A DNA stretch of 64,000 bases from Kofleriaceae bacterium (GCA_046597055.1 JBKJLC010000016.1:1-64000), one strand, 5' to 3'; numbered from the stretch's first letter, positions 23,036-47,659 are shown. Notes: generated from the sequence alone by a model not told the origin. Numbers and translations: made by a program.

Positions 23036-23056
23036 TCGAGCGCTGACAATTGAATA

Positions 23057-23263
23057 GTCTCTCGGGTGCCCGCGAGGGCATAACAGGGAAGCCGGTGCAA
23101 GACCGGCGCGGTCCCGCCACTGTATGTGAGCCGTCACGTCGGTCCCGTCATCGCCACTCGGTATTCACCGGGGAAGGCCGGGGACACTTTCAGTCACTGC
23201 CGGACGTCCAGCTACCGCCGGACGTTCAGCCGCTCACGAGCCAGGAGACCTACCCGAGAAGAC
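23057..23263 (+). ncRNA. Cobalamin (AdoCbl) riboswitch
   Basis: GGTG...AACAGGGAAGCCGGTGCAAGACCGGCGCGGTCCCGCCACTGT...GCCACT...GGGAAGGC...B12 box AGCCAGGAGACCT; closing stem TCTCGGGT/ACCCGAGA. Confidence 0.95.
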
Positions 23264-23329
23264 GCATGTTCTCTCCGCGCGGAACGGGGGGCACGCCTGC
23301 TCGACCATGACTGTCATGGGGGGCACGTG

Positions 23330-23701: not shown

Positions 23702-24907
23702 ATGAGCAAGATCACTCGCACGTCATCCCGTGTTTCCGCCTGCAGCGCGCTGGGCCTGTGTCTCGTCAGCGCCTGCACCGCCGACACGTCGTCACCCGGA
23801 ACCACGGGGGCGCTCGCCAACCGCGCCTACGTCGTCAGCCTCGAGTCCGCCGAGCTCACGGTGATCGACCTCGAGCGCCTCGAGATCATCGCGCGGGTCC
23901 CGACCGGCGGCGTCGCCAACCACATGGCCGAGCTGAACGGCGACTTCACCAAGATCTACGTGAACTCGGCAGGGACCAACGAGACGGTGGTGATCGACAC
24001 CCGGACCTTCGAGGTCCTGACCCGCATCCCGCTGGGCCGGCACCCGTCCCACGTGTCGCTGAGCCGCGACGGCCGCCTGCTGGCGGTGATGAACGAGGAC
24101 GAGGGCACCGGCGCGGTCTCGTTCATCGACACCACGCGTGACGTCGAGATCAAGCGCCTGCCCGGGCTGTACGCGCCCCACTTCATGCGGTTCGCGCCCG
24201 ACGGCGCATACGGCTACGTCGCCAACATGGGCGCGCACCACCTGACCCGGGTCGATCTCGCGACGCTGGAGATCGACGGCCACATCGCGCTCGACGGCTT
24301 CGCCGGCCCGCCGACGCCGACCCTGGCCCCCGCCGAGGGCGGCTTCGGCGACGCCCAGATCGACGCGACCGGCATGCTGTACGCGGCGCACAACACCACC
24401 GGGCGCGTGCTCGTGTACGACACCGTCGCCCGCGAGAAGCGACCCGAGCTGACCGTCGGCGGGCAGCCGTGGATCGTGTTCGCCGAGCACCCGTTCGCCG
24501 AGGTCCCGCGCCGCCACCTGGTCCCGAGCTTCGGCAGCCAGCAGGTCTCGATCATCGACGGCCCGAGCGCCGCGGTGGTCGCCGCGCTGCCCGGCGACGA
24601 GCAGGCCTACGGGGTGAACTACTCGTCGGTGACGCCCGACAAGGCGTTCGTCATGAACCGCGTGCGCGAGGACATCGCGGTGGTCGACACCGCGCGCGGC
24701 ACGATCACCTCGCGCATCCCGGTCGGCGGCAACACCGAGACCGCGTCGACCAGCGCCGACGGCAAGTACGTGGTCGCCGCGGTGTCCGGCGCCGACCGGG
24801 TCGTCGTCATCGACACGGCGACCGACCAGATCGTCAAGACCTTCGATGGCGTCGGCGCTTACCCGTGGAGCGTCACGATCCCGCTCGGCCAGAACTACTG
24901 CCACTGA
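23702..24907 (+). CDS. YncE/YVTN-type beta-propeller lipoprotein
   Basis: AGGAGG SD, lipobox LVSAC, repeated Y-V-x-N..VxVID blades, ends NYCH. Confidence 0.85.
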   Translation: MSKITRTSSRVSACSALGLCLVSACTADTSSPGTTGALANRAYVVSLESAELTVIDLERLEIIARVPTGGVANHMAELNGDFTKIYVNSAGTNETVVIDTRTFEVLTRIPLGRHPSHVSLSRDGRLLAVMNEDEGTGAVSFIDTTRDVEIKRLPGLYAPHFMRFAPDGAYGYVANMGAHHLTRVDLATLEIDGHIALDGFAGPPTPTLAPAEGGFGDAQIDATGMLYAAHNTTGRVLVYDTVAREKRPELTVGGQPWIVFAEHPFAEVPRRHLVPSFGSQQVSIIDGPSAAVVAALPGDEQAYGVNYSSVTPDKAFVMNRVREDIAVVDTARGTITSRIPVGGNTETASTSADGKYVVAAVSGADRVVVIDTATDQIVKTFDGVGAYPWSVTIPLGQNYCH

Positions 24908-24914
24908 GCTGCCG

Positions 24915-26674: not shown

Positions 26675-27449
<775 letters not shown>

Positions 27450-27453
<4 letters not shown>

Positions 27454-28631
27454 CCACCGGGCTCCTCATCATCGGGCACGGTAGCCGCGACCCCGGCGCC
27501 AACGCCGAATTCGAGGCCCTGGTCGCCGCGCACCGCGCGAGCCATCCCGAGCTCGAGGTCGGCCACGGCTTCGTCGAGCTCGCCGAGCCCGGGCTCGACC
27601 CCGCGCTGCGCCAGCTCGCGAGCCGGGTCGACCACGTCGTGGCGGTCCCGCTGTTCCTGTTCGCCGCTGGCCACGTCAAGAATGACATCCCGCTCGCGCT
27701 GGCGCGGGTACGCGCCGACCACCCGGGGGTGCGCTTCACCGCGGCGCGGGCGCTCGGCGTGCATCCCGAGCTGGTCGAGCTCGCGTTCGAGCGCGCGGTG
27801 CCGGCGCTCGAAGCCGCCCGCGAGCGCGCGAAGACCGCGATCATCGTGGTCGGGCGCGGCGCCAGCGACCCCGACGCCAACGGCGACTTCTGCAAGGTCG
27901 TGCGCCTGCTCGGCGAGGGCCGCGGCCTGGGCTGGGTGGTGCCCAGCTTCATCGGGATCGCCCGGCCCAGCTTCGAGGAGACCGCCGAGCTGATCGCGCG
28001 GGCGCGCCCCGAGCGCATCGTGGTGGTGCCGTACTTCCTGTTCGGCGGCCGGCTGATCGACAAGCTGCGCGCGCAGGTCGCGGCCTTCCAGACCCGCACG
28101 CCGTGGATCCCGATCGAGCTGGCGCCGCACCTCGGCGGCGGCGCGCGGGTGTCGCGACTGCTCGACGAGCGCCTGCGCGAGGCGACCGAGGGCGAGCGCC
28201 CGCTGCCGTGCGACACCTGCCAGTACCGCGCGCCGATCGCGGGCGTGACCGGCGCGGTCGGCGGGGTCAAGGCGCTCCTGTGGAGCCTGCGCCACGGCTT
28301 CACCCACGCCCAGGCGATGCCGCACGTGCACGCGCATCGTCCGCTGGTGAAGCACGTGCTGGTCTGCGCCAACGGCGACTGCGCCGCGCGCGGCAGCGTG
28401 CCGCTGCTGGCGACCCTGCGCCGGCTGGTCAAGGACGCCGGCCGCGAGCGCGACATCCGGGTGACCCGGACCTCGTGCATGGGCCGCTGTGGCGAGGGGC
28501 CGACCGTCGCGGTCTACCCCGACGGCATCTGGTACCGCGGCGTCACCGAGGCCGACGCGGCCGAGCTGGTCGACGACCACCTGCTGGGCGACCGCCTCGT
28601 CGGCCGCCTGGTCGACAACATCATGCAGTAG
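27450..28631 (+). CDS. cbiX: Sirohydrochlorin cobaltochelatase CbiX fused to thioredoxin-like [2Fe-2S] ferredoxin
   Basis: GHGSR, PLFLFAAGHVKNDIP, GRGASD, PYFLF; CDTC; His-rich linker; C-x4-C...CMGRCGEGP..YPDGIWY. Confidence 0.9.
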
Positions 28632-28642
28632 GAGCTTCGACC

Positions 28643-29023
28643 ATGGCATGTCACGAGATCGCCGCCCTTCGCCTGAGCCTCATGCAGGTCCTGGGCAGCA
28701 CCGACGAGGCCGAGCGCCAGCACGAGCTGGCCGAGCTCGGCGATGGCGCCGAGGCGCCGGGCCCGCTGCGCTCGCTGTGCAACGCGCGCGACCTGGCGAC
28801 CGTCAAGCACAGCTACCAGGCCGCGATCGCGGCGCTCGAGGAGCGGGTGTCGGGGACCTCGGCGGCGGATGCCGACCTGCCCTACCTGCGCACGCTGGTG
28901 GTGCTGACCAAGAAGGTCGAGCTCGAGCTGGGCCGCCAGATCGACGGGCTCGCCCACCTGTCGCGTGACCTCGAGGAGATGCACGACTTCGTCCACGAAA
29001 TATACCCAGGGGAGTCGACCTGA
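28643..29023 (+). CDS. DUF3209-like protein
   Basis: MACHEIAALRL..MQVLG, HELAEL, YLRTLVV, C-terminal His residues; family recalled from cob clusters. Confidence 0.7.
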   Translation: MACHEIAALRLSLMQVLGSTDEAERQHELAELGDGAEAPGPLRSLCNARDLATVKHSYQAAIAALEERVSGTSAADADLPYLRTLVVLTKKVELELGRQIDGLAHLSRDLEEMHDFVHEIYPGEST

Positions 29024-29757
29024 TGGCGACCGCCAAGACCGCCCACCTGTCCGAGACCCGGACGCTCGGCCCCGACACCCGCCTCTTGGCGCTGGTCACC
29101 GACGAGCCGCTCGGCTTCGTCGGCGGCCAGTACGTCATCATCGACAGCGGCCAGGTCCTGCCCAGCGGCAAGGCGATCAAGCGCGCGTACTCGATCGTCA
29201 CCCGCGACGACGATCAGCGGCGGTTCGAGCTGGCGGTCATGCGCATCCCCGATGGCCCGTGCTCGGGCTACGTGCACGGGCTGCCCGACGGCCACCCGAT
29301 CACGTTCAGCGGCCCCTGGGGCAAGTTCTACCCGGCGGAGGGCGCCACCGGCCCGACCCTGGTGCTGGCGACCGACACCGGCATCACCGCCGCGCTCGGG
29401 CTGATCGGGTCGACCCGCTTCCGTCCGCTGCTCGGCCAGACCGTGCTGATCTGGCTGCGGGTCGCGCCCGACTACTTCGTGCCCGACCAGTTCGTGCGCG
29501 ACCGCATCCCGGACGGCTGCGGCGAGGTCCGCATCGAGACCCTGCCCGCGATCGGCCATCCCGACCGGCTCCCGCACGCCCGCGCCGTGCTGCAGGCGGT
29601 GACCGCGCGGCCCGGCGCCGGCCTGGCCCAGGCCTTCATCGCCGGCGACGGCGCGGTCAACTACGCGCTGCTCGACGATCTGGTAGCCGCCGGCGTGCCG
29701 GTCAGCCGCGACAACGTGGACTCGTTCTTCAACATGCCGAAGAAGACCTCGGCATGA
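29023..29757 (+). CDS. Ferredoxin-NAD(P) reductase-like flavoprotein
   Basis: GQY, RAYSI (RxYS), GPCS, GPWGKF, ATDTGIT, C-terminal DSFF. Confidence 0.85.
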   Translation: MATAKTAHLSETRTLGPDTRLLALVTDEPLGFVGGQYVIIDSGQVLPSGKAIKRAYSIVTRDDDQRRFELAVMRIPDGPCSGYVHGLPDGHPITFSGPWGKFYPAEGATGPTLVLATDTGITAALGLIGSTRFRPLLGQTVLIWLRVAPDYFVPDQFVRDRIPDGCGEVRIETLPAIGHPDRLPHARAVLQAVTARPGAGLAQAFIAGDGAVNYALLDDLVAAGVPVSRDNVDSFFNMPKKTSA

Positions 29758-29775
29758 CCGCCCGAGGTCTCGATC

Positions 29776-30882
29776 ATGGAAGCGCGGGTTCCCCCCAGAG
29801 ACAAGAAGGGCCTGCGCACCGGCTTCACCACCGGTGCGTGCGCGGCCGCGGCGGCCAAGGCCGCCACGCGGTGCCTGGTGCAGGACCTCGTGCTGACCGA
29901 GATTGAGACCACCCTGCCCAACCGGGCCCGGGTCAGGTTTCCGCTGGCCCGCTGCGAGCGGGTCGGCGCCCGGGTCACCTGCAGCATCATCAAGGACGCC
30001 GGCGACGACCCCGACTGCACCCACGGCGCCGAGCTGATCGCCGAGGTCGAGCTGTGCAGCACGCCCGCGATCGAGATCCGCGGCGGCACCGGCATCGCGA
30101 CCGTGACCCGCGCCGGGCTCGGCCTCGAGGTCGGCAGCCCCGCGATCAACCCGGTGCCACGCCGCAACATCACCGAGATGGTGACCGAGGAGCTCGCGCA
30201 CGGCGCGGCCCGCGGCGCCATCGTCACGATCAGCATCCCCGACGGCGTCGAGCGGGCGCTGCAGACCACCAACGCGCGCCTCGGCCTGATCGGTGGGCTC
30301 TCGATCCTCGGCACCTCCGGCATCGTCACGCCGTACTCGACCGCGGCCTGGAAGGCGAGCGTGGTCCAGGAGATCGACGTCGCCGCCCACGGCGGCCAGC
30401 GCGTGATGGTGCTGACCACCGGCGGCAAGTCGGAGCAGTACGCGATGGCGCTGTTCCCCGAGCTGCCCGCGCACGCGTTCATCCAGGTCGGCGACTTCAT
30501 CGGCGTCGGCCTCCGGCAGTGCGCGCGGCGCGGGGTCGAGCGGGTCACCGTGGTCGGCATGATCGGCAAGCTGTCGAAGATGGCCAACGGCCGCATGCAG
30601 ACCCACGTCGCCGGCGCCGAGGTCGACCTGGAGTCGCTGGCGGTCCTGGCCGCCGAGCTCGGCGGGACCGACCAGCTGCTCGCCGCGATCCGCGGCGCCA
30701 ACACCGCCCGCCACGTGCTCGAGCTGTGTCGCGCCGCCGGCCTGGTCGGCATCACCTCGCTGGTGTGCCGCAAGGTCGTCGAACAGTGCCGCCGCCACAC
30801 CGGCGGCAGCCTCGCCGTGCACGCCCGCCTGGTCGACTTCGGCGGCGGCTTGCTCGGCCAGCACCCGGAGACCGACTCATGA
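29776..30882 (+). CDS. cbiD: Cobalt-precorrin-5B C1-methyltransferase
   Basis: LRTGFTTGACAAAA, KDAGDDPDCTHG, AINPVPR, GGLSILGTSGIV. Confidence 0.96.
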   Translation: MEARVPPRDKKGLRTGFTTGACAAAAAKAATRCLVQDLVLTEIETTLPNRARVRFPLARCERVGARVTCSIIKDAGDDPDCTHGAELIAEVELCSTPAIEIRGGTGIATVTRAGLGLEVGSPAINPVPRRNITEMVTEELAHGAARGAIVTISIPDGVERALQTTNARLGLIGGLSILGTSGIVTPYSTAAWKASVVQEIDVAAHGGQRVMVLTTGGKSEQYAMALFPELPAHAFIQVGDFIGVGLRQCARRGVERVTVVGMIGKLSKMANGRMQTHVAGAEVDLESLAVLAAELGGTDQLLAAIRGANTARHVLELCRAAGLVGITSLVCRKVVEQCRRHTGGSLAVHARLVDFGGGLLGQHPETDS

Positions 30883-31532
30883 ACGACATGCGCCAGATGA
30901 CCGCGTTCGGCCGCAGCATCGAGGATGGCAGCTTCGCCATCGTCGACCGCGAGGCCGGCGCCCACGACTTCGGGCCCGACGAGTGGCAGGTGGTCCGGCG
31001 GGTGATCCACGCCACCGCCGACTTCGAGTTCAAGACGCTGATGCGGCTGCACCCCGACGCGGTGCGCGCCGGCGTCGCGGCGCTGCGGAGCGGCTGCCCG
31101 ATCCTGGTCGACGTGCGGATGATCGCGGCCGGCCTCAACCAGGCCCGGCTCGACGCCCACGGCTGCGCGGTCCACGCCTACATCTCCGACGACGACGTGA
31201 TCGCGGCCGCGCAGGCCCAGAACACCACCCGCGCGATCGAGTCGATCCGCAAGGCGCACCGGCTCGGCGTGCTCGAGGGCGCGATCGTGGCGATCGGCAA
31301 CGCGCCGACCGCGCTGCTCGAGGTGGTGCGCCTGATCCTCGAGGACGGCGCCCGCCCGGCGCTGGTGATCGGGGTGCCGGTCGGCTTCGTGTCGGCGGCC
31401 GAGTCCAAGGAGGCGACCCTGACCCTGCCGACGCCGTTCATCGTCGCGCGCGGTCGCAAGGGCGGCAGCCCGATCGCGGTCGCGATCATCCACGCCCTGC
31501 TGCTGCTGTCGGCCACCCCGGAGCCGGCGTGA
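30879..31532 (+). CDS. cbiC: Cobalt-precorrin-8 methylmutase
   Basis: RVIHATAD, AIGNAPTAL, GVPVGFVSAAESK, GRKGGS. Confidence 0.95.
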   Translation: MNDMRQMTAFGRSIEDGSFAIVDREAGAHDFGPDEWQVVRRVIHATADFEFKTLMRLHPDAVRAGVAALRSGCPILVDVRMIAAGLNQARLDAHGCAVHAYISDDDVIAAAQAQNTTRAIESIRKAHRLGVLEGAIVAIGNAPTALLEVVRLILEDGARPALVIGVPVGFVSAAESKEATLTLPTPFIVARGRKGGSPIAVAIIHALLLLSATPEPA

Positions 31533-32779
31533 CCGCCGGACGCGCGGTCGCGCTGGTCGGCATCGGCGACGATGGCTGCGTCGGGCTCACCAGCCGGGCG
31601 CTGAGCGCGGTCAGCCGGGCCGGCGTGCTGGTCGGGGGCGAGCGCCAGCTGGCGTTCTTCCCGCAGTTCGCCGGCGAGCGGATCGTGCTGCGCGGCGGGC
31701 TGGCGGCGACGCTCGATCGGATCGCCGAGCTGGCCGAGGACCGCAACGTCTGCATCCTGGCCTCGGGCGACCCGCTGTTCTTCGGGATCGGCCGGCTGGT
31801 GATCGCGCGGCTGGGCGCGGCCCATGTCGAGGTCATCCCGCAGCCGAGCTCGGTGCAGCTCGCGTTCGCCCGCGCCGGCCTCGACTGGGGCGACGCCGCG
31901 TTCCGGTCGGTGCACGGGCGACCGCTCGACGGCTTCGTCACCCGGCTGGCCCGGGTGGCCAAGGTCGCGGTGCTCACCGACGACGAGCACTCGCCGGCGC
32001 GGATCGCGACGCGCATGCTCGAGTACGGCGAGGCCGGCTGGACCGCGTGGGTCGGCGAGCGCCTGGGCGGCCCCGACGAGCGCGTGCGCGCGTTGTCGCT
32101 GGCCGAGCTGGCGGGGCTCACCGACGTGCATCCGCTCAACGTCCTGGTCCTGGTCCGGACCGACCCGGCCTGGCGCGCCCCGCCGACGATCCCGTACCTG
32201 CACGAGGACGCGTTCGCCCGCCGCATGCCGAAGAACGGCCTCATCACCAAGCGCGAGGTCCGGCTGCTGACCCTGGCCGCGCTCGGCCTCCGGCCCGACA
32301 GCGTGGTCTGGGACATCGGCGCCGGTTCGGGCTCGGTGTCGATCGAGGCCGCGATGCTCGCGCCCGAGGGCCAGGTCTACGCGATCGAGGTCGACCCCGA
32401 GGGGGTCGCGCTGTGCCGCGAGAACGTGCGCGCCCATCACGTCGACAACGTGCACGTCATCGCCGGCCGCGCCCCCGAGGCGCTCGACGGGCTGGCGGAT
32501 CCCGACGCCGTGTTCGTCGGCGGCAGCAAGGGCAGCATGGCCGAGATCGTGGAGGTCGCCCTGACCCGCCTGCGCCCGGACGGCCGGCTGGTGGTGAACG
32601 CGATCACGCTCGAGAACGCGAGCGAGGTCTACCAGGCGCTGCGCGGGCGTGGGCTGGTGCCCGAGGTCACCCTGCTCCAGGTCTCGCGCGCCGAGCCGCT
32701 CGCCCGCTACCTGCGCTACCAGGCGCTCAACCCGATCCAGATCTTCGCGGTGACCAAGCCGGCCGTGGAGGCGCCGTGA
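31529..32779 (+). CDS. cbiET: Bifunctional C5-methyltransferase / C15-methyltransferase-decarboxylase (CbiE-CbiT)
   Basis: ASGDPLFFGIG, SVHGR, ITKREVR, WDIGAGSGSVSIE. Confidence 0.95.
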   Translation: MTAGRAVALVGIGDDGCVGLTSRALSAVSRAGVLVGGERQLAFFPQFAGERIVLRGGLAATLDRIAELAEDRNVCILASGDPLFFGIGRLVIARLGAAHVEVIPQPSSVQLAFARAGLDWGDAAFRSVHGRPLDGFVTRLARVAKVAVLTDDEHSPARIATRMLEYGEAGWTAWVGERLGGPDERVRALSLAELAGLTDVHPLNVLVLVRTDPAWRAPPTIPYLHEDAFARRMPKNGLITKREVRLLTLAALGLRPDSVVWDIGAGSGSVSIEAAMLAPEGQVYAIEVDPEGVALCRENVRAHHVDNVHVIAGRAPEALDGLADPDAVFVGGSKGSMAEIVEVALTRLRPDGRLVVNAITLENASEVYQALRGRGLVPEVTLLQVSRAEPLARYLRYQALNPIQIFAVTKPAVEAP

Positions 32780-33552
32780 CGACCTACGGCACCCTGTACG
32801 GCGTCGGGGTCGGGCCCGGCGCGCCCGACCTGCTCACGCTGCGCGCGCTCGAGCTGTTGCGGCGGACGCCGGTGCTGGCGCTGCCGCGCAGCTCCGACCA
32901 CGGCGCGTCGATGGCATGGCAGATCGTGCGGCCGACCCTGGGGCTGATCGCCGGCCAGGAGCGGCTGTTCCTGACCTTCCCGATGAGCAAGGACCCCGAC
33001 CGGCTGCGACCGGCCTGGGACCGGGCGTTCACCGCGATCGGCGCCCACCTCGAGGCCGGGCGCGACGTGGTGTTCGCCACCGAGGGCGATCCGTCGCTGT
33101 TCAGCAGCTTCATCTACCTGGCCCAGGAGGCGCCGCGGCGCTGGCCCGGCATCCGGGTCGAGATCGTCCCCGGGGTCACGTCGATCACGGCGGTGCCGGC
33201 GGTCACCGGGATCCCGCTCGCCGACGGTCAGGAGCGGATCGCGATCGTGCCGTCGACCTATGGCCTGGCCGACCTGGCCGACCTGCTCGTGCGGTTCGAC
33301 ACCGTGGTCCTGATGAAGCTCGGCGGCGAGCTGCCGCACATCATCGCGACGCTGGAGCGCGCCGGGCTGCTCGACCGCGCGGTGTACGTGTCGCGCGCGA
33401 CCATGCCCGACCAGCGCATCGAGCGCGACCTGCGCGCGGTCACCGCCGCGCGCGGCGACTGCTTCGCGATGGTCGTGGTCTCGCGCAAGGAGCACAGCGG
33501 CCTGCTGGCCGGCACCGTGCCGCTGCGGGCGGTGCCGGCGGTGCACGCGTGA
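32776..33552 (+). CDS. cbiL: Cobalt-factor II C20-methyltransferase
   Basis: LYGVGVGPG..LLTLRA, FPMSKD, TEGDP, VLMK. Confidence 0.93.
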   Translation: MTTYGTLYGVGVGPGAPDLLTLRALELLRRTPVLALPRSSDHGASMAWQIVRPTLGLIAGQERLFLTFPMSKDPDRLRPAWDRAFTAIGAHLEAGRDVVFATEGDPSLFSSFIYLAQEAPRRWPGIRVEIVPGVTSITAVPAVTGIPLADGQERIAIVPSTYGLADLADLLVRFDTVVLMKLGGELPHIIATLERAGLLDRAVYVSRATMPDQRIERDLRAVTAARGDCFAMVVVSRKEHSGLLAGTVPLRAVPAVHA

Positions 33553-34709
33553 CCGCCGGGCGGCGCCCGATGGCGATCCACGCCATCACCAAGCACGGCA
33601 TCGGCATCGCGGCCCGGATGCTCGAGGCGTTCCCGGCCGCGGACCTGTACGTGTCCGAGAAGCTGCGCGCGAGCGCGCCGGCGGTGGCCCACCCGATGCC
33701 GCTGCCGATGGGGCCATGGCTGGCCGACACCTTCGGCGGCTACGACTGCCACGTCTTCATCATCAGCGTGGGCGCGGTGGTCCGCATGGTGGCGCCGCTC
33801 CTGCGCGACAAGAAGGTGGATCCAGCGGTGGTGTGCGTCGACGACGACGCGCGGTTCGCGATCTGCGTGCTGTCGGGCCACGTCGGGCGCGGCAACGAGC
33901 TGACCGGCCGGGTCGCGACCGCGCTGGGCGCGCAGCCGGTGATCACGACCGCCTCCGACGTCCGCGGCACGCTGACCGTCGACATCCTGGGCCGCGAGCT
34001 GGGCTGGACGCTCGACGACGACGACCGCAACGTCACCCGCGGCTGCGCGGCGGTGGTCAACGCCGCCCCGGTCATCTTCGTGCAGGAGGCCGGCGAGCCC
34101 GGCTGGTGGCCGGAAGACCGGGCGCTGCCGCCGGGCGTGGCCTACACGACCGCGCTCGACGAGGTCGATCCGGCCCGGGTCGAGATCGTGCTGATCGCGA
34201 CCGACCGCGAGCTGCGCGAGTCGCACCCGGCGCACTGGGCCAACGCGGTGATCTACCGACCGAAGAGCCTGGTGGTCGGCCTGGGCTGCGATCGCGGCGC
34301 CGATCCGGCGATGGTCGAGCGCGGCTTGCAGGCGATCCTCGGCCGCCATGGGTTGTCGCCGGCGTCGATCAAGTCGATCGCCACGATCGACCTGAAGCAC
34401 GACGAGCCGGCGCTGATCGAGCTGGCCGCGCGCTTCGGCGGGCTGCTGACCACGTACACCGCCGCCCAGCTCGACGAGGTCCCCGGCATCGAGAACCCGT
34501 CGGAGATCGTGAAGCGCCACGTCGGCACCCGCGCGGTCGCCGAGCCGGCGGCGCTGCTGGCGGCCGGCGCGACCCGGCTGCTGGTCGCCAAGCAGAGCTA
34601 CACCGAGCCCGGCGCCGGCCGATCGATGACCGTCGCGGTCGCGCGGATCCCGTTTCCGTCCCGGCGGGTGCCGCCGGCCGCCACCCCTACCGTCGGAGGC
34701 GCGTCATGA
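33549..34709 (+). CDS. cbiG: Cobalt-precorrin-5A hydrolase
   Basis: GAVVRMVAP..DKKVDPAVV, LSGHVG, VITTASD, GLGC, VAEPAA. Confidence 0.94.
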   Translation: MTAGRRPMAIHAITKHGIGIAARMLEAFPAADLYVSEKLRASAPAVAHPMPLPMGPWLADTFGGYDCHVFIISVGAVVRMVAPLLRDKKVDPAVVCVDDDARFAICVLSGHVGRGNELTGRVATALGAQPVITTASDVRGTLTVDILGRELGWTLDDDDRNVTRGCAAVVNAAPVIFVQEAGEPGWWPEDRALPPGVAYTTALDEVDPARVEIVLIATDRELRESHPAHWANAVIYRPKSLVVGLGCDRGADPAMVERGLQAILGRHGLSPASIKSIATIDLKHDEPALIELAARFGGLLTTYTAAQLDEVPGIENPSEIVKRHVGTRAVAEPAALLAAGATRLLVAKQSYTEPGAGRSMTVAVARIPFPSRRVPPAATPTVGGAS

Positions 34710-35590
34710 CCGAGGGCCAAGGCATCCTGTACGTGGTCGGCATCGGGCCGGGTGCGCACGCGCACGCCACGCCGGCCGCGCTGGCCGCGATCGCCGACGC
34801 CGACGTCATCGTCGGCTACACGACGTACATCAAGCTCGTCCGCGAGCTGATCGTGGGCAAGGAGGTCATCCGCACCGGCATGACCGAGGAGATCGGGCGC
34901 GCGCGGGCCGCGGTCGAGCGCGCCCGCGACGGCGCGAAGGTCGCGCTCATCTCGTCGGGGGATCCCGGCGTGTACGGCATGGCCGGGCTGGTCTTCCAGG
35001 TGCTGCGCGAGCTCGGCTGGAAGCGCGGCGAGTCGCCCGAGCTCCGGATCATCCCGGGCGTGACCGCGCTCAGCTCGTGCGCGTCGCTGGTGGGCGCGCC
35101 GCTGGTCCACGACTTCTGCGCGATCTCGCTGTCGGATCTGCTCACGCCGTGGCCGGTGATCGAGCGCCGGCTCGAGGCCGCGGCGTCGGCCGACTTCGTG
35201 ATCGGCCTGTACAACCCGGCCAGCGGCCGGCGCACCCGCCAGATCGTCGCGGCCCAGGAGATCATCCGGCGCCATCGCGAGGGCGCGACCCCGGTCGCGC
35301 TGGTGAAGAGCGCGTACCGCAAGCTGCAGGACGCGGTCGTCACCGATCTCGATCACTTCCTCGAGTACGAGATCGGGATGCTGACCACCGTGCTGGTCGG
35401 CTCGACCAACACCTACCTGTACGAGGGCTACATGGTCACGCCGCGCGGATACACCAACAAGTACACCGCCGACGGCGTGGTCCGGCCCGGCCAGCGCCCC
35501 GGCTACTCGCTGGTGCTCGGCGATGCGATGGCTGCGGCCACGGCCGCGGCGTCGGCGGGCGCGGTCCCGGCGTCGGGCGAGGCCGACTGA
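34706..35590 (+). CDS. cbiH: Cobalt-factor III C17-methyltransferase
   Basis: VGIGPG, SSGDPGVYGMAG, HDFCAISLSDLLTPW, LYNPAS, TPRGY. Confidence 0.95.
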   Translation: MTEGQGILYVVGIGPGAHAHATPAALAAIADADVIVGYTTYIKLVRELIVGKEVIRTGMTEEIGRARAAVERARDGAKVALISSGDPGVYGMAGLVFQVLRELGWKRGESPELRIIPGVTALSSCASLVGAPLVHDFCAISLSDLLTPWPVIERRLEAAASADFVIGLYNPASGRRTRQIVAAQEIIRRHREGATPVALVKSAYRKLQDAVVTDLDHFLEYEIGMLTTVLVGSTNTYLYEGYMVTPRGYTNKYTADGVVRPGQRPGYSLVLGDAMAAATAAASAGAVPASGEAD

Positions 35591-36003
35591 TGGCGTACGT
35601 CGGACGCATCGCGGGCGCGCTGCTCGCCGAGACCGGCGGCGCCTACTACCTGGTCGGCAACACCAAGACGCCGTGCGACTGGGCGGCGGCCGGCTTCATC
35701 GCGCCGGTGACCATCGACGCGCTGACGCGGCCCTGGCTCCGGCTCGACGTGACCGGTGCACCGACGCTCGGTGCGCCGCGCCTCCTCGTCGACGTCGAGG
35801 GCGAGGCGCTCGGCCGCCTGCTCGCCGACCTGTTCTTGATCCCGCGCACCGGCTCGGTCAGCGAGCGCCTGTGGCGCCTGGTGACCGGCCAGCGCGACGA
35901 GGACGACGAACCGGTCCCCGACCCCATCGCGGCCCGCTGGCTCGGCGAGATGCCGGGTCCGGTCTGGCAGGTCGTCCGCGACACCATCCTGCGCTGCAGC
36001 TGA
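35590..36003 (+). CDS. Hypothetical protein embedded in the cob operon
   Basis: TGATG coupling to cbiH; 137 aa MAYVGRI..LVGNTKTPCDW..GSVSERLW; coding-like GC3. Confidence 0.75.
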   Translation: MAYVGRIAGALLAETGGAYYLVGNTKTPCDWAAAGFIAPVTIDALTRPWLRLDVTGAPTLGAPRLLVDVEGEALGRLLADLFLIPRTGSVSERLWRLVTGQRDEDDEPVPDPIAARWLGEMPGPVWQVVRDTILRCS

Positions 36004-36011
36004 GGAGAACC

Positions 36012-36803
36012 ATGCGCGTCTACATCATCGGTGCCGGTCCCGGCGATCCCGAGCTGCTCACCCTGCGTGGTGCCCGGCTGATCGGCACGTGCCCGGTCGT
36101 GCTCTACACCGGCTCGCTGGTGCCGCGCGAGGTGCTGGCGCACGCCCGCCCCGACGCGCAGGTGCTCGACTCGGCGTCGATGACCCTCGATCAGATCCTC
36201 GCGGTCATCGTCGCCGCGCGCGACGCCGATCACGACGTGGCCCGGGTCCACACCGGCGACCCCAGCGTGTTCGGCTCGACCGGCGAGCAGATGCGCCGCA
36301 TGGACGAGCTCGGCATCGCCTACGAGATCGTGCCGGGCGTGTCGTCGTTCACCGCGGCCGCCGCGGTGCTCGGACGCGAGCTGACCCTGCCCGAGCTGAG
36401 CCAGACCATCATCATCACCCGCGCCGAAGGCCGCACGCCGATGCCCGATCGCGAGAAGCTCGCGGACCTCGCACGGCACGGCGCTACTCTGGCGCTGTTC
36501 CTCAGCATCACGCTGCTCGACGACGTCATCGCCGCGCTGGTCCCGTCGTACGGCGAGGACTGCCCGGTCGCGGTGGTGCACAAGGCGACCTGCCCCGATC
36601 AGCAGATCGTCCTCGGCACGCTCGCCGACATCCGCGGCAAGGTCGCGGCCGCCCGCATCCGCACCCAGTCGATGATCCTGGTCGGCCGGGTGCTCACCGC
36701 GACCGACTTCGCCAGCTCGCGCCTCTACGACCCGGCGTTCACCCACCGCTTCCGCCGCGGCACCTCGCACCCGCGCAAGGACAAGGCCCCCCGTGCCGAG
36801 TGA
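36012..36803 (+). CDS. cbiF: Cobalt-precorrin-4 C11-methyltransferase
   Basis: GAGPGDPELLT, YTGSLV, RVHTGDPS, ELTLPELSQT, SRLYDPAFTH; SD GAGGAG. Confidence 0.95.
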   Translation: MRVYIIGAGPGDPELLTLRGARLIGTCPVVLYTGSLVPREVLAHARPDAQVLDSASMTLDQILAVIVAARDADHDVARVHTGDPSVFGSTGEQMRRMDELGIAYEIVPGVSSFTAAAAVLGRELTLPELSQTIIITRAEGRTPMPDREKLADLARHGATLALFLSITLLDDVIAALVPSYGEDCPVAVVHKATCPDQQIVLGTLADIRGKVAAARIRTQSMILVGRVLTATDFASSRLYDPAFTHRFRRGTSHPRKDKAPRAE

Positions 36804-36847
36804 CCGCTGCGCGCGCGTGTACCGGCCGACCGCCGTCCCTCGCTCTC

Positions 36848-37198
36848 CCGTTCGTCCTGACACGGTTGCTCGACATCGCCTCGGCGAAGCGCGACTGCCG
36901 AGATCCGTTCGTCCTGAGCCCGAGCGAGCGCCAGCGAGCTCGGGGTCGAAGGACGCCCTGCCGACCGTCAGCGGGGCGCCCTCGGACTCCCGGCCATGGT
37001 CTCCCGGTGTCCTCGAGCGAAGCCTCGCGCAGCGAGCCGACGTCGACGACAAGCCCGTCGAGGGCCACTGGCTAACACCCTGGACGTCGGCCCTTCGACA
37101 TGGCGCCTTCGGCGCCGGCTCAGGGCCACCGGGCACGGGGCGCGCGCTCGATCACGTGGCGAGTCGTGATCGGAGGGCGAAGCGCGGCGTCGAAGGGC
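36848..37198. repeat. Cluster of REP/MITE-like palindromic repeats
   Basis: CCGTTCGTCCTGA twice (36848, 36905), GTCGAAGGACG (36945), inverted GCCCTTCGAC...GCTCAGGGC (37090-37126), GTCGAAGGGC (37189). Confidence 0.7.
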
Positions 37199-37220
37199 GC
37201 CATGCGGCCGGTGAACCGAC

Positions 37221-39311
37221 ATGAGCGGCCCGGCTTCCAGCGGAGAGCGCGCCCGTGCTGACCGACCGACCGTGGGCATCCGCATCGGCATCTCCGGCGC
37301 GGCCGGGGTCGGCAAGACCACGCTCGCCACCGCGCTGGCGGCCGAGCTCGGCGTGCCGTGCCTGCCCGAGGAGATGCGCGCGCATCTGGAGCAGACCGGC
37401 CGGCCGCTGTCCGAGCTACCGGTCGTCGAGGCGCGGCAGATCGTCACCGCGCTGTGGCGCGGTCGCGCCGAGCTCGAGCGGACCACGCCGTCGTTCGTCG
37501 CCGACAACGCGTGCCTCGACTTCGCGGCCTACGCGCTCTATCACGGCTGTCTCGAGGACGCGTCGTGGGCGGAGCCGCCCGAGCTGCTGCGCGCGCCGAT
37601 CGAACACCTCGCCGGTTACGACGCGATCGTCCTGCTGCCCGCCGGGGTGCTGCCGTATGTCCGCGACGGCGTCCGCTCGTCCAACGCGTCGCTGCAGCTG
37701 CGCTACCAGCTGATCATCGAGGGGCTGCTGCGCCGCCACGCCGACCCGCGCAAGGTGCATCACCTGCCCGAGGGCTGCACCGCGCCCGCCGACCGCCGCG
37801 CATGGGCGCGCGCGATCGTCGACAAGCTCCCCGCGCACCGGGCCCGCCGCCGGCCGGTGCGTGGGCTCGATCCGACCGGCGTGGTGTACCTGGTCGGCGC
37901 CGGCCCCGGCGATCCCGGGCTCTTGACCGTGCGCGCGTGCGAGCTGCTGCGGACCGCCGACGTGGTGGCGCACGACCTCCTGGTCCCGCCCGCGGTCCTC
38001 GCGCTCGCCGGGGCCACCGCCGAGCTCCTGCCGGTCGGTCGGCGCAAGGGCGGCGGTCCCACCCCGTACCAGCTGCATCCCGCCGTGTTCGAGCGGGCGC
38101 GCGCCGGCCAGTCCGTGGTCCGGCTCAAGGCCGGCGACCCGATGGTGTTCGGGCGCGGCGGCGAGGAGGCCGAGGCGCTGGCCGAGGCCGGGATCCGCTT
38201 CGAGATCGTCCCCGGGGTGTCGTCCGCGCTCGGCGCCGCCGCGTACGCGGGCATCCCGCTCACCCACCGCCTGTGCGCGTCCGACGTGACGTTCGTCAGC
38301 GGCCACGACGCCGAGGGGCCGCCGGTGTCGCTGACCGACTGGGCCCGCCTGGCCGGCGGCACCGGCACGATCGTCATGTTCATGGCGGCCCGGAGCCTGG
38401 CGGCCAACCTGGCGCGGTTGATCGCAGGCGGGCGCTCGCCGGAGACGCCGGCCGCGTACGTCGCCGCCGCGACCACACCGGCCCAGCACGTCATCGTCGG
38501 CACGCTCGCCACCCTGCCCGGCCTGATCGCGAACGTCGATCCGACGCCGCCGGCGCTGATCATCATCGGCGAGGTGGTCCGGCTGCGCGAGCGGATCGCG
38601 TGGTTCGAGCACCGGACGCTCGCGGGTCGCCGCCTGGTGGTCGCGCGGGCGCGGCCGGGCCGGTCCGCGATCGCACGCGAGCTGCGCGGGCTGGGCGCCG
38701 AGGTGCTCGAGGTCCCCGAGGTCGAGTCGGTGGCGCTCGATCACGCCCCCGCCGCGGCGCGCACCACGACCCACGATGGCATCGTCTTCGGCTGTGCCGC
38801 CGGCGTCGACGCGGTGGTGGCGCGCGCGGTGCCGACCCTCCCGATCATCGCGGTCGGCACCGAGGCCCAGCGCGCGCTGGCCCGGCACGGCCTGGCCCCG
38901 GCGGTCTGCGTCCGCGGCGCCTGTCGCGACGCGCTGGTCGAGCACGCGGCCCGGTTCGTCGGTCGACGATTCCTGCTGATCACCTCCGACGACGGCCGAC
39001 CCGCGCTCGCCCAGGTGCTGACCGCGCTCGGCGCCACGGTCGACCTCGAGGTCGGCTACCGCTACGTTCGTCGGAGCGCCCCCGCGCCGCTGCCGCCGAT
39101 CGATCTGGTGGTGCTGCCCAGCTCGTCGGCCGCGCGCAACCTGCTGTCTGGCGTGCTCGGCACCGAGCTGTGCCAGGTCCCGATGGTCGCGATGGGCCCC
39201 GCCACCGAGGCCGCGGCGCGCGACCTGGGCGCGCGGCACGTGGTCCGCGCGGCCGACGACACCCCGACCGCGCTGGTCGCCTGCGCCCTGTCGATGGTAG
39301 GAGCCCCATGA
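37221..39311 (+). CDS. cobA: P-loop (NadR/AAA_28-like) + uroporphyrinogen-III C-methyltransferase + HemD-like fusion
   Basis: ISGAAGVGKTT and DGVR; VYLVGAGPGDPGLLT, RLKAGDPMVFGRGGEE, AGIPLTHR; SSSAA..MGPAT. Confidence 0.88.
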   Translation: MSGPASSGERARADRPTVGIRIGISGAAGVGKTTLATALAAELGVPCLPEEMRAHLEQTGRPLSELPVVEARQIVTALWRGRAELERTTPSFVADNACLDFAAYALYHGCLEDASWAEPPELLRAPIEHLAGYDAIVLLPAGVLPYVRDGVRSSNASLQLRYQLIIEGLLRRHADPRKVHHLPEGCTAPADRRAWARAIVDKLPAHRARRRPVRGLDPTGVVYLVGAGPGDPGLLTVRACELLRTADVVAHDLLVPPAVLALAGATAELLPVGRRKGGGPTPYQLHPAVFERARAGQSVVRLKAGDPMVFGRGGEEAEALAEAGIRFEIVPGVSSALGAAAYAGIPLTHRLCASDVTFVSGHDAEGPPVSLTDWARLAGGTGTIVMFMAARSLAANLARLIAGGRSPETPAAYVAAATTPAQHVIVGTLATLPGLIANVDPTPPALIIIGEVVRLRERIAWFEHRTLAGRRLVVARARPGRSAIARELRGLGAEVLEVPEVESVALDHAPAAARTTTHDGIVFGCAAGVDAVVARAVPTLPIIAVGTEAQRALARHGLAPAVCVRGACRDALVEHAARFVGRRFLLITSDDGRPALAQVLTALGATVDLEVGYRYVRRSAPAPLPPIDLVVLPSSSAARNLLSGVLGTELCQVPMVAMGPATEAAARDLGARHVVRAADDTPTALVACALSMVGAP

Positions 39312-40414
39312 CCGATCCGATGTTTCCCGCCGCCTGGCGCCGCGGCGTCTACGAGGCGATCGCCCAGCGGCACGAGCGCCGCGACCTGCGGCCCGAGCCG
39401 GTCGCGCCCGAGGTGCTCGCGCGCATCCTGTCGGCGGCGCACCAGGCCGGACGCGCCGACCTCACGCCGCCCTGGCGGTTCCTGGTGATCACCGATCCCA
39501 CGGTCCGTCACGCGGTCCGCACCCAGCTCGACGGGATCGGCGACGCGCCCGTCCACGTCTGCATCACTTGCGACCCGGCCCCCGCGGCGATCGCGAGTGC
39601 CGAGGGCGCGCTCCAGAACCTGTGGCTGGCGGCGCGCGCCGAGGGCATCGGGGTCAGCGCCGTCACCGTCCGCGAGCCCGCCGCCCTGCGCACGGTCCTC
39701 GGCATCCCCGCGTCGGTGGTGCCGGTCGCCTACCTGGGGCTCGGCCACGTCGATCACTTTCCGGCAGCACCCGGGCCCGATCCTGAGCGGACGCCGCCGG
39801 TCTTCCAGGACGCCTGGGGCCAGGCGCCCGGGCCCGACCTGGCGCGCGCGCTCGAGCGCGGGACGCTGGTGGGGCCGCGGGTCGGCACCGAGACGCCGGG
39901 GCGCGGCCTGCTGCTGGTCTACACCGGCCAGGGCAAGGGCAAGACCACCGCCGCGCTCGGCGTGGTGTTCCGCGCGCTCGGCCGCGGCCTACGGGTCGCG
40001 GTCGTGCAGTTCATCAAGGGCAAGTGGAAGACCGGCGAGCGGCTGTTCGCCGAGACCCTGCCGGAGCTCACGTTCCTGGTCATGGGCCAGGGCTTCACCT
40101 GGGAGAGCGACGATCTGTCGCGCGATCGCAACGCCGCGATCGCCGCGTGGAACCGGACCAAGGAGCTCATCGCTGCCGGCGCGCACTCGGTGATCGTCCT
40201 CGACGAGATCACCTATGCGATCAACTACGGCTTCATCGACGGCGACGATGTGGTGGCCACCTTCGCCAGCCGCCCCGCCCACGTCCACGTGCTGGTGACC
40301 GGCCGCAACGCGCCCGACGCGCTGTGCGCGGCCGCCGATCTGGTCACCGAGATGAAGCCGGTGAAGCACCCGTTCGCGCAGGGCCACAAGGCCCAGCCCG
40401 GGATCGACTTCTGA
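39308..40414 (+). CDS. cobO: BluB-like nitroreductase domain fused to corrinoid adenosyltransferase
   Basis: VYEAI, AAHQA, PWRF, QNLWLAARAEGIG, AYLGLG; then YTGQGKGKTTAA, QFIKG, LDEI, TGR, DLVTEM, KHPF, GIDF. Confidence 0.88.
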   Translation: MTDPMFPAAWRRGVYEAIAQRHERRDLRPEPVAPEVLARILSAAHQAGRADLTPPWRFLVITDPTVRHAVRTQLDGIGDAPVHVCITCDPAPAAIASAEGALQNLWLAARAEGIGVSAVTVREPAALRTVLGIPASVVPVAYLGLGHVDHFPAAPGPDPERTPPVFQDAWGQAPGPDLARALERGTLVGPRVGTETPGRGLLLVYTGQGKGKTTAALGVVFRALGRGLRVAVVQFIKGKWKTGERLFAETLPELTFLVMGQGFTWESDDLSRDRNAAIAAWNRTKELIAAGAHSVIVLDEITYAINYGFIDGDDVVATFASRPAHVHVLVTGRNAPDALCAAADLVTEMKPVKHPFAQGHKAQPGIDF

Positions 40415-41796
40415 TGATCCCGCGCCTCGTGATCGCCGGCACCGCGAGCGGCGTCGGCAAGACCACCGTCACGGTCGGGCTGGCCCGGGCGCTGCGCGCG
40501 CGCGGCCTGCGCGTCGCCATCTTCAAGTGCGGCCCCGACTACCTCGATCCCACCTATCACGCGCGCGCGGTCGATGGACCGTGCCACAACCTCGACGGCT
40601 GGATGATGGGCCGCGAGGCGGTGATCGCCACCTTCGCGCACGCCGCGCGCGACGCCGACCTCGCGCTGCTCGAGGGCGTGATGGGGCTGTTCGACGGCGC
40701 CTCGCCCACCGGCGAGGAGGGCTCGACCGCCGAGATCGCCAAGTGGCTGGCGGCGCCGGTCGTGCTGGTCTGCGACGCCGGCGGCATGGCGCGCAGCATT
40801 GCCGCGCTCGGCCGCGGGTTCGCCAGCTTCGATCCCGCGCTCGCGCTGGCTGGCCTGGTATGCAACCGGGTCGGCAGTCGCAGCCACCTCGACCTGCTCG
40901 GTGCCGCCACCGGCGGCGCGCCGAAGGTGCTGGGCGGGCTGCCCAAGGAGGAGGCCCTGGCGTTTCCCGGCCGGCATCTCGGGCTGCGCACCGCCGACCG
41001 CGACGCGGTACCCGAGCGCGTGTTCGACGGCTGGGGCGAGCGGGTCGCCGCGTGGATCGACGTCGACGCCTTGCTCGCGATCGCGCGGGCAGCGCCGGCC
41101 CTGGCCAGCGCCGTCGCCGCGGCCCCCGCGGTCACCGGCGACGCCCGGTGCCGGATCGGGCTCGCCTTCGACGAGGCCTTCCACTTCTACTACGACGACA
41201 ACCTGCGTCGCCTCGAGCGCCTGGGCGCCGAGCTGGTGCGGTTCTCGCCGCTGCACGACGCCCGCCTGCCCGACGTCGACGGCCTCTACCTCGGCGGCGG
41301 CTATCCCGAGGTCCACGCCGCGGCGCTGTCGGCCAACGCGACCATGCTCGCCGACGTCGCGGCGTTCGCGGGGGCCGGCCGCCCGATCTACGCCGAGTGC
41401 GGCGGCCTGATGTACCTGTCGTCCGGGATCCGGACACGCGACGACCGCCTGCATCCGATGGCGGGGGTGATCGCCGGCGAGGCGGTCATGTGCGAGCGCC
41501 TGCAGGCCCTGGGCTACGTCGAGGTCGAGACCCAGACCCGCACCCTGCTCGGCCCGGCCGGGCTGCGCTTCCGCGGCCACCAGTTCCGCTACTCCGAGCT
41601 GCGCGGCATGCCCGATCAGCTCGAGCGCGCGTACAGCGTCCGCAAGCGCCGCAGCGGTCAGGTCGAGCGCGAGGGCTACCACGCCGGCAACGTGGTCGCC
41701 TCGTACGTCCACGCGCACTGGGCCTCCAACCCGCTGGTAGCCAGCGGGTTCGTCGAGGCCTGCACCCGCGCGCGCACCACGCCGGGGCGGCCATGA
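40414..41796 (+). CDS. cbiA: Cobyrinate a,c-diamide synthase
   Basis: SGVGKTT, FKCGPDYLDP, EGVMGLFDG, RHLGL, GGGYPE, AECGG. Confidence 0.95.
   Translation: MIPRLVIAGTASGVGKTTVTVGLARALRARGLRVAIFKCGPDYLDPTYHARAVDGPCHNLDGWMMGREAVIATFAHAARDADLALLEGVMGLFDGASPTGEEGSTAEIAKWLAAPVVLVCDAGGMARSIAALGRGFASFDPALALAGLVCNRVGSRSHLDLLGAATGGAPKVLGGLPKEEALAFPGRHLGLRTADRDAVPERVFDGWGERVAAWIDVDALLAIARAAPALASAVAAAPAVTGDARCRIGLAFDEAFHFYYDDNLRRLERLGAELVRFSPLHDARLPDVDGLYLGGGYPEVHAAALSANATMLADVAAFAGAGRPIYAECGGLMYLSSGIRTRDDRLHPMAGVIAGEAVMCERLQALGYVEVETQTRTLLGPAGLRFRGHQFRYSELRGMPDQLERAYSVRKRRSGQVEREGYHAGNVVASYVHAHWASNPLVASGFVEACTRARTTPGRP

Positions 41797-46120: not shown

Positions 46121-46127
<7 letters not shown>
45045..46127 (+). 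CDS. cobD: L-threonine-O-3-phosphate decarboxylase (PLP, HisC-like)
   Basis: [39 protein letters not shown]; cob context. Confidence 0.88.

Positions 46128-47659
<1,532 letters not shown>

Follow-up and report, generated by a model that had tools for sequence, protein, structure and literature searches.

A cobalamin operon without CbiJ in a Kofleriaceae bacterium: ferredoxin, DUF3209 and flavoprotein genes as separable candidate accessories of a CbiD lineage

Completion of the corrin ring requires a reduction between Co-precorrin-6A and Co-precorrin-6B, and ring contraction at Co-factor III also needs a reductant. Co-precorrin-6A is made by CbiD and then reduced by CbiJ with NADH (PMC7242693). 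How the second of these enzymes is dispensed with is the question raised by a cobalamin operon in DNA from a Kofleriaceae bacterium (GCA_046597055.1 JBKJLC010000016.1:1-64000; the whole stretch of 64,000 nucleotides is referred to as the window). An original prediction, made from the sequence alone, held that the operon lacks CbiJ/CobK and that a single chain running from NAD(P)H through a ferredoxin-NADP+ reductase (FNR)-like protein to a ferredoxin, with or without DUF3209, replaces it or supplies electrons elsewhere. All three genes were found before cbiD on the + strand, and the predicted TGATG coupling was seen as an overlap of the flavoprotein ATG with the DUF3209 stop codon.

27450..28631, + strand: CbiX-L-type cobaltochelatase fused to a CbiW-like [2Fe-2S] domain, 393 amino acids (Pfam, alignment)
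28643..29023, + strand: DUF3209, 126 amino acids, all-helical (PF11483, E 2e-44, 151.5 bits)
29023..29757, + strand: FNR-fold flavoprotein (FAD_binding_6, E 3e-12)
29776..30882, + strand: cbiD (Pfam/NCBIfam, trees, diagnostic columns)

The account tentatively favored here, which falls a little short of an even chance of being right, is that the operon is the cobalt-early cassette of a CbiJ-less CbiD lineage, with a ferredoxin-centred electron supply, an optional flavoprotein and reduction of Co-precorrin-6A by way of its own CbiD or CbiET. Within it, the three genes are best explained, judging from their sequences and distribution, as two separable accessories and not as one enzyme system.

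Absence of CbiJ and the descent of CbiD

A search of the whole source genome with the CbiJ/CobK profile PF02571 returned nothing over the cut-off (best E 0.6), with none of the three module proteins matching, and tblastn of the genome with two real CbiJ/CobK proteins gave no match at E<=1. The assembly is 94.2% complete and 7.55% contaminated, in 303 contigs. The profile search works, since CbiJ was recovered with it in 2 of 14 control genomes; the Sulfolobus and Methanosarcina controls have CbiD and gave no CbiJ match. The lack of CbiJ/CobK from the operon is thus confirmed, and no cbiJ was found by profile elsewhere in the genome. The idea of a precorrin-2 dehydrogenase substitute was rejected, a SirC-like match (PF13241, E 2e-21) lying on another contig of the genome; an apparent divergent CbiJ in Leptospira weilii (E 0.003) was rejected as well, the match being ATP synthase gamma.

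The absence of CbiJ appears, from comparison of the sequences, to follow the ancestry of CbiD, which makes the CbiD lineage with its ferredoxin the better lead. In an IQ-TREE tree of 71 CbiD proteins (rows L191, L194, L235 and L236 having been dropped; L and G numbers denote loci and genomes), the window protein lies in a clade of 39 rows with SH-aLRT support of 99, made up of 31 rows from DUF3209 loci and 8 with neither DUF3209 nor CbiJ. All 20 rows from CbiJ-positive genomes lie outside this clade. A FastTree analysis of 94 CbiD proteins gave a clade of 45 rows (support 97; 31 with and 14 without DUF3209), again with every one of the 35 rows linked to CbiJ, by genome or by cluster, outside it. 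When 131 Gammaproteobacteria were freshly drawn, 14 carried cbiD; excluding the centre of the draw, CbiJ was present in 11 of 13, and the two CbiJ-less genomes (G1235 and G1280) were the only two of the 13 inside the window CbiD clade. Four plasmid-borne proteobacterial clusters in the clade have no CbiJ on their plasmid. These conclusions stand without the L009 (G305) rows, which enter the counts of 80, 56 and 31, and without G1301, one of the 11 CbiJ-positive gammaproteobacteria. The clade is further marked by ∼20 diagnostic CbiD columns.

A thioredoxin-like ferredoxin accompanies the clade in four arrangements: joined to CbiX (in 79 of the 80 DUF3209 loci and in Thermus); as a free gene after CbiX (L197, L198); as a free gene after cbiH in proteobacterial clusters (L254/L283, L256, L257, L274); and, in Pirellulales, as an additional copy close to cbiD. 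Of the 14 clade rows that lack DUF3209, 7 have this ferredoxin within or close to the cluster. In CbiJ-positive genomes it was found in none of 15 sequence windows of 11-20 kb and in none of 10 windows of 3.7 kb.

Several points weigh against this reading. Both trees were built by quick methods and rooted at the midpoint, and G1235 and G1280 are sisters, which makes them one event and not two. The four proteobacterial members were tested for CbiJ on the plasmid only, L148 at its locus only, and L017 and L171 below genome level. A second CbiJ-less group of CbiD proteins (13 rows) lies outside the clade and has no ferredoxin match, and the other 7 of the 14 clade members without DUF3209 have no such ferredoxin near cbiD (L148, L183, L186, L188, L190, L195, L255), three of these seven genomes holding only distant copies of 28-35% identity. 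The clade-specific CbiD residues may be plain ancestry, none of them being a new Cys or metal motif. Finally, the ferredoxin alone is no marker of CbiJ loss, because in Bacillus megaterium cbiW and CbiX-L occur alongside cbiJ (PMC8123684, PMC6250708).

Two CbiD residues, D240 and R312 in the numbering of the window protein, are common to both CbiJ-less groups (58/58 and 56/58, respectively); CbiD linked to CbiJ mostly has N and E at these positions. Neither a link between CbiJ loss and a CbiD lineage nor a published function for DUF3209 or this flavoprotein clade was found in the full-text literature, a body that leaves most subscription journals outside its coverage; the name DUF3209 turned up in the main text of a single paper.

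Distribution and separate loss of the three genes

Scanning 185,579 species genomes for the DUF3209 pattern yielded 129 loci. The counts below are for the best 80, which lean to close relatives; most of the genomes were assembled from metagenomes, and related genomes do not count as independent. By label these loci belong to Myxococcota, Nitrospirota, Binatota, Planctomycetota, Acidobacteriota, Pseudomonadota and Spirochaetota. Of the 80, 79 contain the CbiX linker and ferredoxin, which lie directly upstream of DUF3209 in 63; in 70, the first matched gene following DUF3209 is that of the flavoprotein, almost always ahead of cbiD. Such an arrangement of ferredoxin, DUF3209 and FNR-like genes is far beyond chance. 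Adjacency of the CbiX fusion and DUF3209 is not obligatory, because 2-7 kb of other genes intervene in many Sorangium genomes (L038, L041, L042, L044, L047, L048, L054, L056-L058, L060, L064, L082, L083).

Routine co-occurrence of the module with cbiJ, which would have spoken against the predicted replacement, did not occur: CbiJ exceeded the cut-off in 0 of 56 DUF3209-positive genomes (56 of the best 80 having been searched). Among 251 sampled Planctomycetota genomes, 28 have cbiD and 26 of these have CbiJ; the sole DUF3209 carrier of the sample, its centre, lacks CbiJ, and 26 of the other 27 cbiD-positive genomes have it. All nine DUF3209-positive genomes labelled Planctomycetota are likewise without CbiJ. 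In 400 Polyangia genomes the flavoprotein occurs in 12 (all DUF3209-positive) and CbiJ/CobK in 3, with no overlap, cbiD having been outside that search. The window's own phylum was uninformative, with cbiD in only 2 of 301 genomes. DUF3209 was thus never seen together with CbiJ in the genomes tested; for the flavoprotein there is one exception, in L157/L159, where it stands beside CobK.

Nitrospirota set a limit on this exclusion. There, cbiD is present in 74 of 201 genomes; CbiJ occurs in 10 of the 74 and DUF3209 in 7, never together, which leaves 57 without either. The exclusion is not significant, ∼0.95 overlaps being expected by chance (7 x 10 / 74). Thus 57 of the 64 CbiJ-less, cbiD-positive genomes have no DUF3209, and the CbiJ-less state does not require the module. 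For the most part, the mutual exclusion of DUF3209 and CbiJ reflects common descent within one CbiJ-less CbiD lineage.

The pattern in Nitrospirota also bears on the proposal that an unlinked housekeeping reductase, or free reduced flavin, carries out the reduction of Co-precorrin-6A and that the CbiD-clade pattern records a single ancient loss of cbiJ. No redox gene next to cbiD was found to be common to 20 inspected Nitrospirota regions lacking CbiJ and DUF3209, and CbiJ is missing from many unrelated cobalt-early organisms, including most delta-proteobacteria (PMC545781), Geobacter (PMC3543383) and the Sulfolobus and Methanosarcina controls. The cassette is nevertheless found in at least seven phyla by label without having regained cbiJ, which is easier to understand if it is self-sufficient, and the proposal is considered highly improbable.

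Two further features of Nitrospirota were noted. CbiJ is fused to CbiG (510-531 amino acids) in 7 of the 10 CbiJ-positive genomes (L175-L179, L181, L182). A gene for a protein of 400-460 amino acids with a BPL_N (glutamine-amidotransferase-like) N terminus, located after cbiGH or divergent from cbiD, occurs in genomes of the second CbiD group that lack both CbiJ and DUF3209 (L184, L185, L191-L194, L196, L201, L202).

Natural deletions separate the parts of the module. The flavoprotein is absent from 10 of the 80 DUF3209 loci, and no ortholog was found in the whole genomes of five of five such loci, in which one weak partial match (E 2e-10) was seen. It is also reported as deleted from two Leptospira species in which the remainder of the cluster is retained, a loss for which the authors suspect laboratory passage (PMC4758666). 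In L148 the reverse is observed: a CbiX without the tail stands in place of the fusion, neither DUF3209 nor the ferredoxin is present, and the flavoprotein is kept together with a gene for a 137-residue protein described below; no cbiJ was seen in the 18 kb of this locus. In both trees the CbiD of L148 pairs as sister with the one from L009, a locus carrying the full module. On Thermus pTT27 and Haloferax pHV3, the CbiX-CxxC-ferredoxin fusion is followed directly by DUF3209, with no flavoprotein or 137-residue gene in the cluster, and Haloferax keeps the fusion and DUF3209 even though it has no cbiD. The flavoprotein, for its part, lies between btuD and cbiA beside an aerobic cluster in L157 and L159 (metagenome loci, probably from one organism), and L157 carries cobK and a CobG-like gene nearby.

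Because relatives lose each part separately, the three genes do not behave like a single CbiJ substitute and look more like helpers in a wider variant of the pathway. A replacement would be expected in CbiJ-less, cbiD-positive genomes and would not be lost singly; the module is missing from many such genomes and its parts are lost one at a time without CbiJ appearing. The single chain of the original prediction is therefore not upheld. A role for the module in electron supply stays likely, only not as one chain that substitutes for CbiJ.

In four Pirellulales loci (L046, L053, L069, L076), a second thioredoxin-like ferredoxin and a nitroreductase/BluB-like gene stand directly before cbiD in place of the flavoprotein and the 137-residue gene. 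Apparent fusions of DUF3209 to the FNR-like protein (P0250, P0270) look like frameshifted copies of adjoining genes and were not used as evidence.

The encoded proteins and a proposed mechanism

The first protein has two CbiX domains (PF01903 twice, E 1e-52) and the N-terminal catalytic histidines of the CbiX-L type; these are H10 and H75, invariant in a 39-row alignment, for comparison with His14/His79 of CbiX-L (PMC7689651). Its linker contains an invariant C254-x-x-C257 and a His-rich stretch with several invariant histidines, and the thioredoxin-like [2Fe-2S] domain that follows (PF01257, E 1e-5, 25.8 bits against a cut-off of 24.8) has four invariant cysteines, C306, C311, C343 and C347. 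At the position of the MXCXXC motif, Leu replaces Met in all 39 rows; Met is found in Haloferax and L198. The same CbiX-CxxC-ferredoxin fusion is present in Thermus, Haloferax and Leptospira. In its sequence, the window protein fits a CbiX-L joined to a CbiW-type ferredoxin (compare PMC6250708). The CbiX-L tail holds a 4Fe-4S centre, is dispensable for chelation and has been proposed to serve in metal storage and delivery (PMC7689651, PMC8390425).

That proposal favors an alternative in which the CbiX tail, the ferredoxin and DUF3209 handle cobalt (storage, delivery, sensing or metal redox), the flavoprotein reduces cob(II)yrinate diamide for CobO, and the CbiJ step is covered otherwise. DUF3209 has invariant Cys, Glu and His residues and always accompanies the CbiX tail, and the flavoprotein is coupled to cbiA both in the aerobic-pathway locus and in L162. 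Cobalt handling does not account, however, for the free ferredoxins after cbiH in CbiJ-less proteobacterial clusters, which were not found in CbiJ-positive windows, and it leaves the CbiJ step without a candidate in the compact Thermus cluster. This alternative is regarded as rather unlikely.

DUF3209 is predicted to form a helical hairpin (pLDDT 94), and the model matches Thermus TTHB059 (PDB 2EHW) with a TM score of 0.83 and Z of 15.2. Beyond 2EHW, the fold search returned only generic helical hairpins (Z <= 8.2), ferritin-like matches not being significant. Residues C3, E5, R10, Y81, H114 and H118 are invariant over 45 rows. Apart from the pair of DUF3209 and the CbiX CxxC/[2Fe-2S] tail, no unassigned element is shared by Thermus, Haloferax, Leptospira, Nitrospira, myxobacteria and Pirellulales. 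This, the absence of CbiJ from all 56 tested carriers and the listing of DUF3209 among four candidates for gaps in the haloarchaeal pathway (PMC8305020, supplement S3.b) would suit a dedicated CbiJ substitute. A small helical hairpin offers no cofactor fold, however. The 14 members of the same CbiD clade that lack DUF3209 lack CbiJ as well, as do the 57 Nitrospirota genomes, and L148 lost DUF3209 with no cbiJ in 18 kb, so that such a dedicated role is judged quite improbable.

The flavoprotein has the two-domain FNR fold with intact FAD motifs (R54-x-Y-S, G78-x-x-S81 and GPWG). Its NAD(P)H motifs are remodelled: GxGxxP has become TDTG[IV][TS]A, and the canonical CG motif of the FNR NAD(P)H domain has become GDG. 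The window protein reads ATDTGITA where solved reductases have GGGTGLAP, GTGTGIAP or AGGTGITP. All 146 of the 146 distinct orthologs have D118 and G208-D209-G210, and none has Pro at position 123. The NAD(P)H-domain profile PF00175 gave no match in the window flavoprotein, and its sequence matches are classical FNR-type reductases covering the FAD half only. Nothing was found when genome contigs were scanned with the flavoprotein as a single protein.

The top fold matches are siderophore-interacting proteins (SIPs; Foldseek ranks 1, 2, 7 and 8), and these are FNR folds whose FAD motifs are common to the window protein (SfSIP 6GEH, BauF 7LRN). The window protein differs from them in being only 15-16% identical, in belonging to Pfam FAD_binding_6 and not to the SIP families, and in its cobalamin-synthesis neighborhood; it also counts against the comparison that the SIP folds lead other FNR-family folds barely (E 5e-15 versus 2e-13). 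Two siderophore-interacting proteins favor reduced ferredoxin over NAD(P)H (PMC8296543). Because the NAD(P)H motifs are replaced and these two SIPs prefer ferredoxin, we infer that electron flow in the direction NAD(P)H to FNR to ferredoxin, as first predicted, is not to be assumed.

Could the FNR-like protein itself be the Co-precorrin-6A reductase, with FADH- donating two electrons and being recharged by ferredoxin or NAD(P)H, and with another flavoprotein, such as the Pirellulales nitroreductase before cbiD, taking over in lineages that lack it? This would be the original prediction with the flavoprotein as its final step. By established chemistry a flavin fits the reduction of a C=C bond better than a one-electron ferredoxin does. 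Conserved basic residues (K50/K53/K241) could bind a polycarboxylate substrate, a conserved Lys/Arg arrangement that may be compared with the SIP basic triad (PMC8296543). The position of the gene 5' of cbiD, the lack of overlap with CbiJ/CobK in Polyangia and retention in L148 after loss of DUF3209 and ferredoxin also agree with such a role. Against this, the gene is lost without replacement in L084 and L075, was lost in the two Leptospira species (laboratory passage suspected), is absent from the Thermus cluster, and in L157/L159 is kept beside cbiA with cobK and a CobG-like gene. The flavoprotein is decidedly unlikely to be the reductase.

The account favored above, a ferredoxin-centred cassette, leaves two steps to be served. 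Because there is no CbiJ and the window CbiH has no Fe-S domain (no nitrite/sulfite-reductase-like domain was found in it with Pfam), two reductive steps have no dedicated catalyst in the operon. In B. megaterium the reductant for ring contraction reportedly comes from the Fe-S domain of CbiH60, and cbiW is said to be dispensable in Escherichia coli. In the window operon, the first accessory unit would be the CbiX-L fused to its CbiW-type [2Fe-2S] ferredoxin, with DUF3209 partnering the C-terminal tail of CbiX, and DUF3209 Cys3 could complete a metal site begun by the CbiX CxxC. The second unit would be the optional FAD protein. The CbiX-bound ferredoxin would form the core, as a shared carrier of low-potential electrons to cobalt-precorrin intermediates, and would deliver them at two steps: the factor-III/CbiH ring contraction and the conversion of Co-precorrin-6A to 6B. 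The latter reduction may take place on or beside the lineage-specific CbiD, or on the co-inherited CbiET. The flavoprotein would speed reduction while being open to bypass, and possibly takes electrons from ferredoxin in the manner of siderophore-interacting proteins. The electron-transfer steps, their acceptor, the contact of DUF3209 with CbiX and de novo B12 synthesis by these organisms are all what we infer from such comparisons.

A bolder form of this model, which is doubtful, would make the widespread CbiD subfamily of Thermus, Leptospira, Nitrospira, myxobacteria and some Planctomycetota and Proteobacteria the mark of a route independent of CbiJ. On this view, CbiD or a partner would couple C1 methylation to C18-C19 reduction, both driven by thioredoxin-like ferredoxin, possibly via the cobalt centre, with DUF3209, the remodelled flavoprotein and the CbiH-linked 137-residue or ChuX-like domains as lineage-specific adaptors.

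The operon and related systems

The remaining features of the locus are as follows.

22142-22942, + strand: cobS, upstream of the riboswitch and hence outside its control
23047..23271, + strand: cobalamin riboswitch heading the operon (Rfam RF00174, 98.7 bits)
23702..24907, + strand: YncE/cytochrome-d1-like beta-propeller, the first gene 3' of the riboswitch
24846-27453, + strand: btuF/C/D-like ABC transporter genes, after the beta-propeller
30879..35590, + strand: cbiC, cbiET, cbiL, cbiG and cbiH (Pfam; CbiH of 294 amino acids)
35590..36003, + strand: 137-residue protein of no known family, between cbiH and cbiF, TGATG-coupled to cbiH
36012..47659, + strand: cbiF, AAA_28-SUMT-HemD fusion, nitroreductase/BluB-like-CobO fusion, cbiA, cbiZ, cobU, cobT, cbiB, cobD and cbiP
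47846-48034, + strand: two tRNA genes that close the operon

The position of cobS, the terminal tRNA genes and the scattered taxonomy of the relatives suggest a mobile history. In one fusion gene (37221-39311, + strand), an AAA_28 P-loop domain precedes SUMT-HemD, and AAA_28 genes of a similar kind recur before cysG in several myxobacterial and acidobacterial loci. In another (39308-40414, + strand), CobO is fused to a nitroreductase/BluB-like domain that scores below the BluB cut-off and, from its sequence, may be either a degenerate BluB or a flavin reductase serving adenosylation.

The gene at 35590-36003 is a fourth cassette gene without a known family and had escaped the original prediction. 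Its family numbers 353 homologs, and the gene is present in 61 of the 67 DUF3209 loci in which cbiH is visible. In Leptospira interrogans the protein forms the C-terminal domain of CbiH (residues 363-497, E 6e-38). No informative match was found in PDB sequences, Pfam, NCBIfam or Atlas; an invariant C-terminal Cys and an R-x-x-S-x-S-x-R-L motif characterize the family. The protein is a candidate partner of the ring-contraction step. In a Nitrospira cassette, a ChuX/HutX-like tetrapyrrole-binding domain is encoded by a gene of its own that separates the flavoprotein gene from cbiD (L007:11101-11478; E 0.001, under the cut-off), at a place where a gap of ∼381 nucleotides recurs in many loci, and such a domain is fused to CbiH in Methylomonas (L256:10114-10668, E 9e-12).

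Taken as a whole, the cassette varies the known cobalt-early pathway; its gap is real and already known, and some of the candidates for it are in print. The cbiWHXJCDETLFGA operon of Bacillus (Priestia) megaterium is cobalt-early and has, as in the window, a CbiX with a CxxC and His-rich tail and a thioredoxin-like [2Fe-2S] ferredoxin (PMC8123684, PMC6250708, PMC7689651). In the window, by contrast, the ferredoxin is fused to CbiX and has the motif L-P-C-x-x-C and not MXCXXC, cbiJ is missing, and DUF3209, the flavoprotein and the 137-residue gene are added. The window CbiH also lacks the C-terminal Fe-S domain of CbiH60, which reportedly acts in ring contraction.

In the Leptospira cobI/III cluster, LB_165, LB_164, LB_163 and LB_162 share gene order and orthologous proteins with the window. 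Table 2 of PMC4758666 labels them ferredoxin-related protein, hypothetical protein, flavodoxin reductase and Co-precorrin-6A synthase, respectively, and the table rows consulted hold no CbiJ; the passages available from that paper neither give these genes a function nor take up the missing CbiJ. The 137-residue protein is fused to CbiH in L. interrogans, whereas it is a separate gene in the window. Thermus thermophilus pTT27, which encodes TTHB059 (PDB 2EHW), has a CbiD of the same clade, the CbiX fusion and DUF3209 without CbiJ, but its cluster differs in having neither the FNR-like nor the 137-residue gene.

In Haloferax volcanii, HVO_B0052-B0056 include the CbiX-CxxC-ferredoxin gene followed by DUF3209, with no CbiJ, as in the window; haloarchaea differ in lacking CbiD too, and the cluster has no FNR-like or 137-residue ortholog. 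The window beta-propeller and the 137-residue protein were considered as orthologs of HVO_B0052 and HVO_B0055, respectively, and rejected, since neither BLAST nor HMM comparison gave a match. DUF3209 and a ferredoxin are two of the four candidates that Pfeiffer and Dyall-Smith put forward for the gaps at EC 1.3.1.106, the CbiJ/CobK activity, and 2.1.1.195 (PMC8305020, supplement S3.b); they favored the 4Fe-4S ferredoxin and a PQQ-repeat protein and had no clue for DUF3209. Extracts of PMC7617358, PMC2670198 and PMC6461909 contained nothing on this question.

That many cobalt-early B12 makers have a gap at the CbiJ step has been recognized since at least 2004 (PMC545781), and the gap is acknowledged in haloarchaea too (PMC8305020). 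The present analysis narrows it: the absence of CbiJ becomes predictable from CbiD sequence, the ferredoxin domain emerges as its most constant companion, and the candidates can be ranked by natural deletions, the three genes before cbiD being reasonable but individually dispensable ones. Genome-based B12 predictions may score such clusters as incomplete. Were the flavoprotein a ferredoxin-fed reductase of cobalt-tetrapyrroles, it would represent a new functional branch of the FNR fold, and a CbiJ-independent route, if it exists, would close the EC 1.3.1.106 gap by new chemistry and not by a new reductase.

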